From a virus (lineage: Duplodnaviria > Heunggongvirae > Uroviricota > Caudoviricetes): a stretch of 7,221 nucleotides of DNA. This document shows, piece by piece, positions 1 through 6,994 of this stretch. The notes below the pieces were generated by a model, which saw only the letters and a program-made list of their open reading frames with translations, was not told the DNA's origin and ran no database searches. Made by a program: the position numbers and the translations under genes. The stretch lies in the IMG/VR virus record IMGVR_UViG_2531839523_000007, one strand, 5' to 3'. Each line of letters begins with the position of its first letter. Within the stretch, counting starts at the first letter, position 1.

Positions 1-2263
<2,263 letters not shown>

Positions 2264-2281
2264 ATTTTATAACCCAGAACG

Positions 2282-2308
2282 GGCGTCAGAAATGACGCCT
2301 TTTTTATT
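2282..2308 (+). terminator. Rho-independent terminator downstream of J
   Basis: Perfect 7-bp stem GGCGTCA (2282-2288) / TGACGCC (2293-2299) with a GAAA tetraloop, followed directly by TTTTTT (2300-2305) then ATT. Confidence 0.7.
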
Positions 2309-2329
2309 GCAGAAAAGCGAGAGGTAATT

Positions 2330-2929
2330 ATGCGTAAACTTTATGCCGCCATTTTGTCCGCAGCCATTTGTCTGGCCGTATCCGGTGCGCCTGCATGGGC
2401 GTCTGAACATCAGTCCACGCTGAGCGCTGGGTATCTTCATGCCCGGACGAACGTTCCCGGCAGTGATGATCTGAACGGGATTAACGTGAAATACCGTTAT
2501 GAGTTTACGGACACACTGGGGCTGGTTACGTCATTCAGCTATGCAGGAGACAAGAATCGCCAGCTGACCCATTACAGCGATACCCGCTGGCATGAAGATT
2601 CCGTGCGTAACCGCTGGTTCAGCGTGATGGCGGGGCCGTCTGTACGCGTGAATGAATGGTTCAGCGCGTATGCGATGGCAGGCGTGGCTTACAGCCGTGT
2701 GTCGACTTTCTCCGGGGATTATCTCCGCGTAACTGACAACAAGGGGAAAACGCACGATGTGCTGACAGGAAGTGATGACGGTTGCCACAGCAACACGTCT
2801 CTGGCGTGGGGGGCTGGCGTGCAGTTTAACCCGACCGAATCCGTGGCCATTGATATTGCTTATGAAGGCTCCGGCAGTGGCGACTGGCGCACTGACGGTT
2901 TCATCGTGGGTGTCGGTTATAAGTTCTGA
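2330..2929 (+). CDS. lom: Lom/Ail-family outer membrane beta-barrel protein (phage moron), 199 aa
   Basis: ATG at 2330 preceded by a GAGG Shine-Dalgarno (2321-2324). N-terminal Sec signal peptide with an AxA site (..GAPAWA/SEHQ). C-terminal half is close to lambda Lom as I recall it, including the ending ..IAYEGSGSGDWRTDGFIVGVGYKF with a terminal aromatic beta-signal. Position between J and stf matches lambda. Confidence 0.93.
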   Translation: MRKLYAAILSAAICLAVSGAPAWASEHQSTLSAGYLHARTNVPGSDDLNGINVKYRYEFTDTLGLVTSFSYAGDKNRQLTHYSDTRWHEDSVRNRWFSVMAGPSVRVNEWFSAYAMAGVAYSRVSTFSGDYLRVTDNKGKTHDVLTGSDDGCHSNTSLAWGAGVQFNPTESVAIDIAYEGSGSGDWRTDGFIVGVGYKF

Positions 2930-2956
2930 TTAGCCAGGTAACACAGTGTTATGACA

Positions 2957-2982
2957 GCCCGCCGGTTCAGGCGGGCTTTTTT
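2957..2982 (+). terminator. Rho-independent terminator downstream of lom
   Basis: Stem GCCCGCC (2957-2963) / GGCGGGC (2970-2976) with loop GGTTCA, followed by TTTTTT (2977-2982). Starts 28 nt after the lom stop. Confidence 0.75.
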
Positions 2983-2993
2983 GTGGGGTGAAT

Positions 2994-5900
2994 ATGGCAG
3001 TAAAGATTTCAGGTGTACTGAAAGACGGCACAGGAAAACCGGTACAGAACTGCACAATCCAGCTGAAAGCAAAACGTAACAGCACCACGGTGGTGGTGAA
3101 CACGCTGGCCTCAGAAAATTCGGATGAAGCCGGGCGTTACAGCATGGACGTTGAGTACGGTCAGTACAGCGTTATTCTGTTGGTGGAAGGATTCCCGCCG
3201 TCACATGCCGGGACCATCACCGTGTATGAAGATTCCCGACCCGGTACGCTGAATGATTTTCTCGGTGCCATGACGGAGGATGATGCCCGTCCGGAGGCTC
3301 TGCGCCGTTTTGAACTGATGGTGGAAGAGGTGGCGCGTAACGCGTCCGCGGTGGCACAGAACACGGCAGCCGCGAAGAAGTCAGCCAGTGATGCCGGCAC
3401 ATCTGCCCGTGAGGCGGCAACCCATGCGACTGATGCTGCAGGCTCAGCGCGTGCAGCCAGCACGTCAGCCGGACAGGCCGCGACTTCGGCTCAGGAGGCG
3501 TCTTCCAGCGCAGGAACGGCATCAACAAAGGCCACTGAAGCATCAAAAAGTGCTGCCGCTGCAGAGTCCTCAAAAAGCGCGGCGGCCACCAGTGCCGGTG
3601 CGGCGAAAACGTCAGAAACGAATGCTGCAGCGTCACAAAAATCAGCAGCCACTTCTGCATCCACTGCGACGACGAAAGCGTCAGAAGCCGCCACTTCAGC
3701 CAGAGATGCGGCGGCCTCCAAAGAGGCGGCAAAATCATCAGAAACGAACGCCTCCACAAGCGCCAGCAGTGCAGCCTCCTCGGCAACGGCGGCAGGAAAT
3801 TCCGTGAAGGCGGCAAAAACGTCCGAGACGAATGCCAGGTCTTCTGAAACGGCAGCGGAACAGAGCGCCTCAGCTGCGGCAGACTCTGAGACAGCAGCTG
3901 CATCATCGGCCCGTGAGGCGTCCATTAAGGCAGAGGAGGCAGCAGTCAGTGCCACCGCCGCCGGAAAATCGGCAGAAAGCGCCGCATCATCCGCTTCAAC
4001 AGCCACAACGAAGGCTGGCGAAGCCACTGAACAGGCCACTGCAGCAGCGAGGGCTGCTTCCGCAGCGAAGACATCCGAAACGAACGCGAAAGCGTCGGAA
4101 ACCAGCGCAGAATCCTCAAAAACGGCTGCCGCATCGTCCGCCAGTTCGGCGGCGTCATCGGCATCATCTGCGTCTGCTTCAAAAGATGAGGCGACCAGAC
4201 AGGCGTCAGCAGCGAAGGGCAGCGCCACGACGGCATCCACGAAGGCGACAGAGGCAGCTGGTAGTGCGACAGCGGCAGCACAGAGCAAAAGTACGGCAGA
4301 ATCCGCAGCAACGCGCGCTGAGACAGCGGCAAAACGTGCAGAGGATATTGCATCCGCCGTGGCGCTTGAGGATGCGAGCACGACGAAAAAGGGGGTAGTA
4401 CAGCTCAGCAGTGCGACCAACAGCACGTCTGAAACGCTGGCGGCAACGCCAAAGGCAGTAAAAGCAGCCTATGACAATGCAGAGAAACGTCTGCAGAAAG
4501 ACCAGAACGGTGCTGATATTCCCGACAAGGACCGCTTCCTGAGTAACATTAATGTTTACAGCAAAGGTGAAGTGGATCAGAAAAAGGGGATGCGATACGT
4601 TGTGGTAAATGCCCCGGCGGGTGTCCAGGAAGGTAAATATTATCCGTTAGTGATAAAAAGGAATGACAGCCATCGGGCATCCCGCGTTGTCATTTCAACG
4701 CCAAGTCGCTCAGCTAATCACAGAATGAATAATTGTGAGTTTAATGGTTTTGTTTGCGCAGGCGGCTGGACGGACCGGGGTAGCTATGCCTGTGGTATGT
4801 TCTGGGCTTATTCATCATCGGAACGCGCTATTCATTCCATTCTGATGAGTAATAAAGGCGATACCGTAGACAGCGTATTCTATATAGAAGGTGGGGCATT
4901 TCCCGTAGAGGTCTTTTTAGAAGAAGGTCTCTCCGTTACTGCACCTGCTTCTGATTATATTGTTGCTGAAACGACTTATAAATTTGGCGCAACTGATCCT
5001 TATTCTGAATCAGTTGCGGTAAATTTAATTTTAGATTTTAAACAAGGTAATGGATTTTATAGTTCGTATCCTGTTTTGAGTAAGTCAGACATTAGCGGGA
5101 ATAAGATTTACGCTAATGATGAAGTTATTGTCCGTAGTCAGAACGCGTTAAGGATGATTGCAGGTGATTACGGTGTCATATGGCGAAATGATGGAGCAAA
5201 TACTTACTTGCTCATGACTGATAAAGGCGACCAGTACGGTGGCTGGAACGGTCTTCGACCATTTGCAGTAAATAACGCAACAGGTGAAGTGACGATCAAT
5301 ACACCACTTAATTCTCCTAAGGGGATTAAGGGAAATTCTGATACAGCTACGAAACTTCAGACAGCAATAAAAATATCTGGTGTTTCGTTTGATGGTTCTA
5401 CTGATATCACTTTAACCGCTGCGCATGTTGCTGCTTTTGCCAGAAGAGCAACGGATACGTATGCCGATGCGGATGGGGGCGTTCCCTGGAATGCCGAATC
5501 AGGCGCTTACAATGTCACTCGCTCTGGCGACAGCTATATTCTGGTTAACTTCTATACCGGAGTCGGAAGTTGCCGGACCTTGCAGATGAAGGCGCATTAC
5601 AGAAATGGTGGTCTGTTCTACCGTTCTTCAAGAGACGGTTATGGTTTTGAGGATGACTGGGCAGAAGTTTATACCTCGAAAAATCTTCCACCAGAAAGCT
5701 ACCCAGTCGGCGCACCAATCCCGTGGCCATCAGATACCGTTCCGTCTGGTTATGCCCTGATGCAGGGGCAGACTTTTGACAAATCTGCTTACCCGAAACT
5801 TGCAGCTGCTTATCCGTCAGGCGTGATCCCTGATATGCGTGGCTGGATGATTAAGGGCAAGCCCGCCAGTGATCGAGCCGTATTGTCTCAGGAACAGGAC

Positions 5901-6410
5901 GGCATTAAATCACACACCCACAGCGCCAGCGTATCCAGTACGGATTTGGGGACGAAAACCACATCGTCGTTTGATTACGGCACTAAATCCACGAATAACA
6001 CTGGTGCGCATACCCATAGTGTTAGCGGTACGGCTGCTTCAGCCGGTGCACATACCCATTCGATGACATTTGTTTCAGGTGGTTCCAGTGGTGCTCCGGG
6101 AAGTGGATCACCTGATTATTCTAAATACAGTGTTAACACTTCTTCTGCAGGCGCTCATACGCACTCTGTATCGGGTACTGCTGCAAGCGCAGGTGCACAC
6201 GCGCATACTGTCGGTATTGGTGCTCATACGCACTCTGTATCGGGTACTGCTGCAAGCGCAGGTGCACACGCGCATACTGTCGGTATTGGTGCTCATACGC
6301 ACTCCGTTGCGATTGGTTCACATGGACACACCATCACCGTTAACGCTGCTGGTAACGCGGAAAACACCGTCAAAAACATCGCATTTAACTATATTGTGAG
6401 GCTTGCATAA
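2994..6410 (+). CDS. stf: Side tail fibre protein, 1138 aa; mosaic of a conserved N-terminal anchor, an Ala/Ser/Thr-rich shaft, an AT-rich central module, a tail-collar-like domain and a His-box (HxH) tip
   Basis: ATG at 2994 gives [26 protein letters not shown]..., the canonical lambda Stf N-terminus as I recall it; the GTG at 2988 used by the ORF track is probably not the start. A GGGG/GGTG SD-like sequence lies at 2985-2990. Internal [24 protein letters not shown] phage tail-fibre repeat motif (about 4390-4460). Collar-like signature [47 protein letters not shown] (about 5680-5860). About ten HxH motifs of the GAHTHS type (about 5905-6335). Stop TAA at 6408-6410. Confidence 0.93.
3340..4380 (+). 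repeat. Low-complexity Ala/Ser/Thr-rich coding repeat region within stf (predicted fibre shaft) with recurring AKTSETNA units
   Basis: Imperfect dispersed repeats of the type aaaacgtcagaaacgaatgc at about 3603-3625, 3731-3752, 3811-3837 and 4062-4088. The protein is A/S/T/E/K-dominated. Lack of stop codons in several frames generates the spurious overlapping ORFs in the track. Confidence 0.8.
6153..6304 (+). repeat. Perfect in-frame 69-bp tandem duplication (two full copies plus a 14-bp start of a third) in the His-box tip region of stf
   Basis: 6153-6221 and 6222-6290 are identical (gctcatacgcactctgtatcgggtactgctgcaagcgcaggtgcacacgcgcatactgtcggtattggt), encoding [23 protein letters not shown] twice. 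6291-6304 repeats the first 14 nt and then diverges. An older copy at about 6003-6066 encodes nearly the same peptide with different codons. Confidence 0.9.
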
Positions 6411-6994
6411 TGGCATTCAGAATGAGTGAACAACCACGGGCCATAAAAATTTATAATCTGCTGGCCGGAACTAATGAATTTATTGGTGAAGGTGATGCAT
6501 ATATTCCGCCTCATACAGGTCTGCCAGCAAACAGTACCGATATTGCACCGCCAGATATTCCGGCTGGCTTCGTGGCTGTTTTCAACAGTGATGAGTCATC
6601 GTGGCATCTCGTTGAAGATCATCGGGGTAAAACGGTTTATGACGTGGCTTCCGGCGACGCGTTATTTATTTCTGAACTCGGTCCGTTACCGGAAAATGTT
6701 ACCTGGTTATCGCCGGAAGGGGAGTTTCAGAAGTGGAACGGCACAGCCTGGGTGAAGGATACGGAAGCAGAAAAACTGTTCCGGATCCGGGAGGCGGAAG
6801 AAACAAAAAACAACCTGATGCAGGTAGCCAGTGAGCATATTGCGCCGCTTCAGGATGCTGCAGATCTGGAAATTGCAACGGAGGAAGAAATCTCGTTGCT
6901 GGAAGCATGGAAAAAGTATCGGGTATTGCTGAACCGTGTTGATACATCAACTGCACCTGATATTGAGTGGCCTACGAACCCTGTCAGGGAGTAA
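6410..6994 (+). CDS. tfa: Tail fibre assembly protein (chaperone), 194 aa
   Basis: ATG at 6410-6412 overlaps the stf stop (TAATG). The translation [61 protein letters not shown]... matches lambda Tfa (194 aa) as I recall it. GAGG lies 9 nt upstream. Stop TAA at 6992-6994. Confidence 0.93.

Follow-up and report, generated by a model that had tools for sequence, protein, structure and literature searches.

The closest described relatives of the locus studied here are the side tail fibres (Stf) of lambdoid phages. Stf of lambda (Ur-lambda), a protein of 774 amino acids (aa), has an N-terminal collar domain, an Ala/Ser/Thr coiled-coil rod and a gp37-like tip with Tfa, and its residues 102-393 have been assigned as coiled coil (PMC12617516). 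Lambda recombines with the stf/tfa regions of Rac and Qin via divergence-tolerant Rad52-like recombinases, and such recombination leaves blocks of >90% identity flanked by traces of intermediate identity (De Paepe et al. 2014, PMC3945230; earlier work on tail-fibre mosaicism, Haggård-Ljungquist 1992 and Sandmeier 1994, is cited therein). Two fibres of this kind, StfR of the Rac prophage of E. coli K-12 and Stf of phage 2H10, are used below as the main references. A further reference is T4 gp34, a proximal half-fibre of a myophage, in whose crystal structure residues 1014-1047 and 1105-1128 form a triple β-helix with the P4 five-stranded β-prism between them (PMC5537660).

Here, we analyzed a 7,221-nucleotide (nt) stretch (hereafter the window) of a tailed virus of the Caudoviricetes, IMG/VR record IMGVR_UViG_2531839523_000007. 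This DNA belongs to a lambdoid prophage and corresponds to its distal tail region, with the gene order J-lom-stf-tfa. In the middle of its stf gene, which encodes 1138 aa, there is an AT-rich stretch that is a recombination-swapped block, that is, a case of ordinary tail-fibre mosaicism. The block (hereafter the cassette) encodes two domains, D1 and D2, and the parts of the gene that concern it are as follows.

2994-6410 (+): stf, side tail fibre gene of StfR type; 1138-aa open reading frame (ORF) with PF08400, PF21446, Collar and Phage_fiber matches, co-linear with K-12 StfR and 2H10 Stf
4401-4538 (+): conserved fibre motif and left recombination joint; 86-92% nt identity to fibre genes of P2-like phages (Peduovirus)
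4526-5403 (+): AT-rich exchanged cassette (D1, D2 and linker); limits from maximum-likelihood two-breakpoint segmentation against StfR
4584-5084 (+): D1, predicted autonomous β-sandwich fibre domain, aa 531-697; no Pfam family
5094-5369 (+): D2, putative T4 gp34 P4-type β-prism with flanking triple β-helix, aa 701-792; phmmer matches to 4uxe and 9x3r, and PF21446
5370-5426 (+): linker and right recombination joint; identity to StfR is back to >90% from about 5403

The window Stf has the same lom-stf-tfa order and the same full domain order as StfR and 2H10 Stf, and the three proteins align co-linearly from end to end with flanks that are 95-100% identical. The D1-D2 block, taken as far as …DITLTAAHV, is also equal in length in these proteins, apart from a 3-aa and a 2-aa indel, but it is only about 60% identical at the aa level. 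At the nt level, identity to StfR was 61.5% inside 4526-5403 and 95.2% outside. Specifically, the proportion of synonymous differences (pS) was 0.75-0.78 inside the cassette, meaning that synonymous sites are saturated, with a nonsynonymous divergence (dN) of about 0.33, whereas the flanks showed a pS of 0.12-0.15 and a synonymous divergence (dS) of 0.13-0.17. Given this saturation between flanks of low synonymous divergence, the window and StfR blocks are two old lineages of one module that have been recombined into near-identical frames. The window allele differs from its counterpart in its lower GC content at third codon positions (GC3) and is rarer, occurring in 157 of 5426 complete E. coli genomes, compared with 1316 of 5426 for the StfR allele.

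A second comparison dates one exchange as recent. The fibre gene of plasmid NZ_CP082122 (108 kb, IncFIB), which belongs to the Cyrano group of ~108-112-kb E. coli phage-plasmids and shares 98.5% identity with phage Cyrano in its tail-tip gene, was 99.1% identical to the window over nt 4544-5316, whereas the shaft around this block was 66-96% identical (mean outside the block, 77.9%). A block at 99.1% between flanks at about 78% means that the cassette was exchanged recently with the phage-plasmid fibre lineage. The pattern is that expected of relaxed recombination, a >90% block with flanks of intermediate identity, and resembles the mosaicism reported in stf of lambdoid prophages (PMC3945230). 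Unlike in those prophages, however, the partner is a phage-plasmid fibre, and the exchanged unit is an internal block of two domains rather than a tip. Several further non-mobilizable plasmids of ~108-112 kb have the same cassette at 97-98% identity. The fibre gene of NZ_CP082122 (nt 4829-8733 of the retrieved locus) is annotated as frameshifted.

Both comparisons gave sharp junctions, at 4526 and 5403 against StfR and at 4544 and 5316 against the phage-plasmid fibre, and both left breakpoints fall at the end of the conserved fibre motif, which itself aligns to residues 91-172 of Mu protein S. A previous reading of this DNA made from the letters alone (the sequence-only reading) had described the stretch as a horizontally acquired insertion. 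Horizontal exchange is borne out by the identity of 99.1% inside versus 77.9% outside; insertion is not, since StfR and 2H10 have a homologue of the same length at the same slot, which also ruled out an insertion peculiar to this Stf.

The cassette can also be followed by its presence and absence. In plasmid pEC16-2, D1 is 50-67% identical to that of the window, whereas D2 is 94-100% and the upstream shaft 96-99% identical; this combination of a diverged D1 and a near-identical D2 means that the two domains recombine independently, with a breakpoint near nt 5050-5090. In one database protein (P0010), D1 is followed directly by the linker motif ATKLQT…DGS.DI, without D2. D1 was not found in the O157-type Stf L008 (971 aa) or in L009 (1008 aa), which share aa 1-500 with the window protein at 94% and 86%, respectively, and L009 carries gp34-like units without D1. 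Lambda Stf lacks D1, D2 and the Mu-S-like domain that follows them (window aa ~500-900) and has about 134 other residues instead. Lambda Stf and two more lambdoid fibres that share the first ~500 aa thus have no such module; the module explains most of the extra length over lambda, as the sequence-only reading had proposed.

The GC content along the window followed the same limits. It was 0.57-0.66 over 3301-4400, fell to 0.355-0.49 over 4501-5400 and was about 0.5 afterwards; the minimum lay at 4901-5200 (0.355-0.365 in 200-nt windows), and 90-nt windows were as low as 0.32 at 4965-5100. By region, GC was 0.610 in the shaft (3396-4400), 0.422 in D1, 0.428 in D2 and 0.426 over 4560-5450, and 0.50-0.52 in the Mu-S-like, collar and tip parts. 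Of all 891-nt windows in the 7,221 nt (mean 0.529, standard deviation 0.054), the one with the lowest GC (0.420) begins at 4525. The drop in mid-stf that had been estimated by eye is therefore real, as is the rise after the module; the estimate of 35-40% GC holds for a core at roughly 4900-5200, whereas the whole of 4560-5450 averages 42.6%. Codon usage changes as well, again in agreement with that estimate: GC3 was 0.34 over 4560-5450, 0.35 in D1 and 0.36 in D2, with local lows of 0.10-0.23, compared with a shaft value of 0.51 and values of 0.60-0.66 for J, lom and the Stf N-domain. GC at second codon positions (GC2) reached 0.77 in the shaft, from GCN Ala codons.

We considered whether the dip merely reflects the amino-acid composition of the block, with no foreign ancestry or exchange. 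When GC was predicted from the amino-acid sequence alone with the codon usage of the window itself, the shaft was expected at 0.626 and the module at 0.494-0.504, while the module was observed at 0.42-0.43. Thus, the amino-acid sequences predict ~0.13 of the 0.19 by which module and shaft differ in GC, and the StfR allele of the block is likewise lower in GC than the shaft (0.38-0.57). However, the module lies ~0.07 under its prediction, and that part is synonymous; about two thirds of the contrast between shaft and module reflect amino-acid content, with codon choice making up the other third. Composition alone would leave unexplained the fall of GC3 to 0.35 (0.10-0.23 locally), the collapse of identity to StfR exactly at the edges of the dip, the confinement of synonymous saturation to the inside of the block, and a block 99% identical within an otherwise 78%-identical phage-plasmid fibre. 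With the fall in GC3 and a divergence that coincides with the junctions, we rejected this explanation as extremely improbable.

We also looked for a function of the AT-rich stretch other than coding for Stf. No other ORF of at least 60 aa was found in it on either strand, promoter-like sites were at chance level (2 found versus 2.2 expected), and no terminator-like sites or Rfam families were detected in it. Consequently, an embedded gene or regulatory element was ruled out. A 19-nt inverted repeat (4979-5027, 89% complementary, 11-nt spacer) lies in the most AT-rich part of D1 and is probably due to chance.

The second half of the module could be assigned. D2 (aa 701-786) aligned to residues 1034-1119 of T4 gp34 in both 4uxe and 9x3r (phmmer, E 1.7e-19, 50% identity over 86 residues), and PF21446 (Gp34_trimer) scored 105.3 bits against a gathering cut-off of 27 (envelope aa 655-758), far over the threshold. 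The alignment includes the motif GDYG…RND..NTY.L.T..GDQ.GG.NGLRP, and D2 also aligned to residues 268-334 of Mu protein S. By these alignments, D2 is a homologue of the P4 β-prism of gp34 with its flanking triple β-helix. The window allele is somewhat closer to gp34 (51% identity) than the StfR allele is (41%). Unlike in T4, the window fibre has just this element and no counterpart to the rest of gp34, and the element belongs to a siphophage side fibre, in its distal half, instead of to a myophage proximal half-fibre. Although the peptide strings quoted in the sequence-only reading are indeed present in the translation, its statement that they contain no assignable motif did not survive: the second half is PF21446, and a quoted string aligns to gp34 1034-1119 and to Mu protein S and makes up the conserved core of the gp34-type element.

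The PF21446 envelope overlaps the last ~45 residues of D1. In addition, a 27-nt imperfect direct repeat (78%) at 4835-4861 and 5204-5230, probably a chance likeness, underlies …SILMSNKGD… in D1 and …YLLMTDKGD… in D2. Because of this overlap and this repeat, the boundary between D1 and D2 is not fully settled, and a distant kinship between the end of D1 and the gp34 unit is possible.

D1, in contrast to D2, has no Pfam family match and belongs to neither a curated family nor a solved fold. Structure prediction gave a high-confidence compact monomer of ~170 residues with a β-sandwich fold, so that D1 is predicted to be a self-contained domain with one copy per chain. Its sequence features were defined on an alignment of 30 sequences (23-63% identity), in which the motifs AP.G..GKYYP, PMNNC.F.G, GGW.D, ERAIHS and FYVE.RAFP extend across ~165 residues; the conserved positions are mainly Gly, Pro and aromatic residues, and the resulting hidden Markov model matched window aa 531-697. 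An exhaustive search found D1 in 125 representative clusters, always internal, ~165 residues long and at variable positions in proteins of 400-2700 aa. The N-termini (PF08400 and PF12571) and C-termini (Peptidase_S74, Collar and gp37-type) of these proteins vary. By tblastn, D1 was present in 276 phage records, including lambdoid phages, a P1 variant (65% identity), BASEL phages with annotated lateral tail fibres, phages with genomes of ~106-121 kb, Aeromonas T4-like distal fibre subunits, Vequintavirus fibres and large Vibrio phages. It also occurred in 9g-like fibres and among BFVD entries, and it matched PHROG tail-fibre families plus one PHROG family of unknown function. Overall, D1 is a common and uncharacterised fibre domain.

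When the D1 profile was searched against PDB sequences, only antibody heavy chains matched, and weakly so (E 2.7e-4 at best, 0.017 for the best single stretch). These were regarded as spurious, as they reflect a likeness in β-sandwich and composition inflated by many Fab entries.

Taken together, 4526-5403 is a mosaic cassette in an StfR-type stf, probably with a structural role in the shaft, D1 and D2 being two fibre-shaft domains. Along the fibre it comes after the coiled-coil rod of the proximal part and before the T4 gp37-like receptor-binding tip at the distal end. Based on homology with lambda Stf (PMC12617516), T4 gp34 and gp37, and Mu S, the fibre would consist, in order, of the collar domain, the coiled-coil rod, the conserved repeat motif, a D1 knob, the D2 β-prism/triple β-helix, the linker, the Mu-S-like domain, the collar, the His-box needle and a tip folded with Tfa. 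The three D1 copies would form a knob on the trimeric fibre, one from each chain, and D2, as in gp34, may intertwine the three chains and hold them in register. The cassette would then add length to the distal shaft and keep its chains in register, and the conserved linkers on either side would make it interchangeable.

Long Stf proteins have at least two alleles of ancient divergence in this slot, the commoner being that of K-12 Rac StfR. The cassette, and also D1 and D2 singly, probably move among fibre genes of different temperate phages by homologous recombination at short conserved linkers (left, …NGADIPDK; right, …ATKLQT…DITLT). Both domains have many relatives in phage fibres other than those of lambdoid phages. 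The low GC and the AT-ending codons are probably a property of the putative donor lineage of the block.

In practical terms, nt 4526-4544 on the left, 5316-5403 on the right (…ATKLQT…DITLT) and the D1/D2 boundary near 5050-5090 are natural joints for chimeric side tail fibres. Moreover, fibre-internal blocks, besides tips, pass between lambdoid prophages and ~108-kb phage-plasmids. Otherwise, this is textbook tail-fibre mosaicism that leaves the understanding of these fibres unchanged.

Several points weigh against a purely structural cassette. Because the structure predictions covered the monomer alone, we infer the arrangement of D1 as a knob and its purely structural function. D1 keeps conserved polar positions (the MNNC, GGWxD and ERAIHS motifs), which could be a ligand site instead of a packing or interface feature; the loops that carry them were the least confident part of the first D1 model, built from a shallow alignment. 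Several deeply diverged alleles at one slot among near-identical fibres could reflect selection on specificity. Finally, as GC in the StfR allele is below that of the shaft too, low GC is no sign that the window allele is the more foreign of the two.

Alternatively, D1 could be a widely mobile functional fibre domain that was previously unrecognised, either a glycan-binding adhesin or a fibre-fibre docking site, which we consider unlikely. If it were so, the allele at this slot would set part of the host range or of the fibre architecture independently of the tip, and the deep polymorphism of E. coli prophages at the slot would reflect selection on that function. As an accessory adhesin, a role akin to the receptor- or carbohydrate-binding domain put forward in the sequence-only reading, D1 would be a lectin-like β-sandwich present three times per shaft that binds a surface glycan (lipopolysaccharide core, O-antigen or capsule) in a first, reversible contact. 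An independently folding β-sandwich, as predicted, would suit this role, as would conserved polar loop motifs, several ancient alleles in one slot between near-identical flanks, and the occurrence of D1 in lateral and long fibres across many phage groups. However, the most conserved parts of D1 are common to phages of Escherichia, Aeromonas and Vibrio hosts, the opposite of what is expected of a specificity determinant, and the domain sits in mid-shaft with a complete gp37-type tip and a Tfa chaperone downstream. In addition, no significant fold or sequence match of D1 to a known carbohydrate-binding module or lectin family was found, and dS is saturated, so dN/dS gives no positive sign of diversifying selection. 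The adhesin role is accordingly doubtful, and so is its corollary that an allele swap would shift host range independently of the gp37-like tip.

It is far less likely that D1 serves to dock another protein (a second fibre, an adaptor or an assembly factor), as at the branch points of multi-fibre Vequintaviruses. Homologues of D1 do occur in Vequintavirus fibres, and the RBPseg pseudo-domain D42, like D1 a mobile and functionally unassigned domain inside fibres of several phage families (Vequintavirinae among them), lies at fibre-fibre contacts in that group (PMC12143355). The two were compared by description, and the link is a circumstantial overlap of phage groups. Moreover, the fibre of navn (Vequintavirus) has a single detectable D1 copy, whereas two D42 copies are implied for most TC12 fibres (PMC12143355), and the window codes for no additional fibre component except tfa. 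The suggestion in the sequence-only reading that the segment may be an enzymatic domain, for which we considered a depolymerase, esterase or peptidase, found no support: no catalytic Pfam family matches the protein or the relatives of D1, no catalytic β-helix or hydrolase domain of a tailspike-type depolymerase was found, the D1 model is a 170-residue β-sandwich, neither β-helix nor hydrolase fold, and D2 is a known non-catalytic shaft element. An enzyme was thus considered and rejected as having next to no probability.

The remainder of the window shows the setting in which the cassette is found, with the following features outside it.

65-2263: 3' part of J (from the ORF list)
2330-2929: lom, intact, upstream of stf
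2994-3395 (+): N-terminal tail-attachment (collar) domain of Stf, aa 1-134; PF08400, 237.3 bits against a cut-off of 26.6
3396-4400 (+): Ala/Ser/Thr-rich proximal shaft, 75% aa identity to lambda orf-401; GC 0.61, GC2 0.77, GC3 0.51
5427-5711 (+): Mu S/S'-like distal shaft domain, aa 812-906; residues 322-415 of 8ju3_A, domain E 3.2e-20
5691-6407 (+): Collar and T4 gp37-like His-box receptor-binding tip, aa 900-1138; 2xgf_A (gp37 tip), E 2.3e-81
6410-6994 (+): tfa, tail fibre assembly chaperone, 194-aa ORF; homologous loci are annotated tfa/tfaR

Residues 1-94 of Stf matched the N-domain chain of Ur-lambda Stf (9e7m, E 2.6e-50), and by homology to lambda Stf the proximal shaft (3396-4400) is taken to be a coiled coil. 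The tip region had Pfam matches to Collar (aa 906-953) and to Phage_fiber repeats. The J-lom-stf-tfa context, the end-to-end co-linearity with StfR and 2H10 Stf, and the gp37-like His-box tip at the C-terminus (2xgf_A match) place the protein among the lambdoid fibres of StfR type.

The tip differs from those of StfR and 2H10 and is a second highly diverged stretch of the alignment (around columns 1006-1066, nt ~6000-6200). It contains a perfect 69-nt tandem duplication at 6153-6304 (2.2 copies, 100% match) in the His-box part, with a repeat unit of 23 aa that is present as a single copy in StfR and 2H10.

Phage PhiR30_1, whose record is the closest among phages, matched the window at 96% across positions 1-6028. 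In its record (nt 3596-6989 of the retrieved locus), stf is annotated as three coding sequences with a gap between positions 4999 and 5398 that corresponds to about 4397-4796 of the window, whose own stf is a single intact ORF. Possibly the side-fibre gene of PhiR30_1 is broken up, as that of laboratory lambda is; sequencing or annotation errors in the record are the other possibility. Similarly, lom of K-12 Rac (nt 1-1436 of the retrieved locus) is split by an IS5-family element, while the window lom is intact. Both K-12 and 2H10 have a gene for a pinR-type recombinase or invertase after tfa; the window stops 227 nt past tfa. Finally, the Rfam family RF02111 (IS009) scored 223.6 bits (gathering score 117) at 6753-6951 (+), wholly within the coding sequence of tfa.

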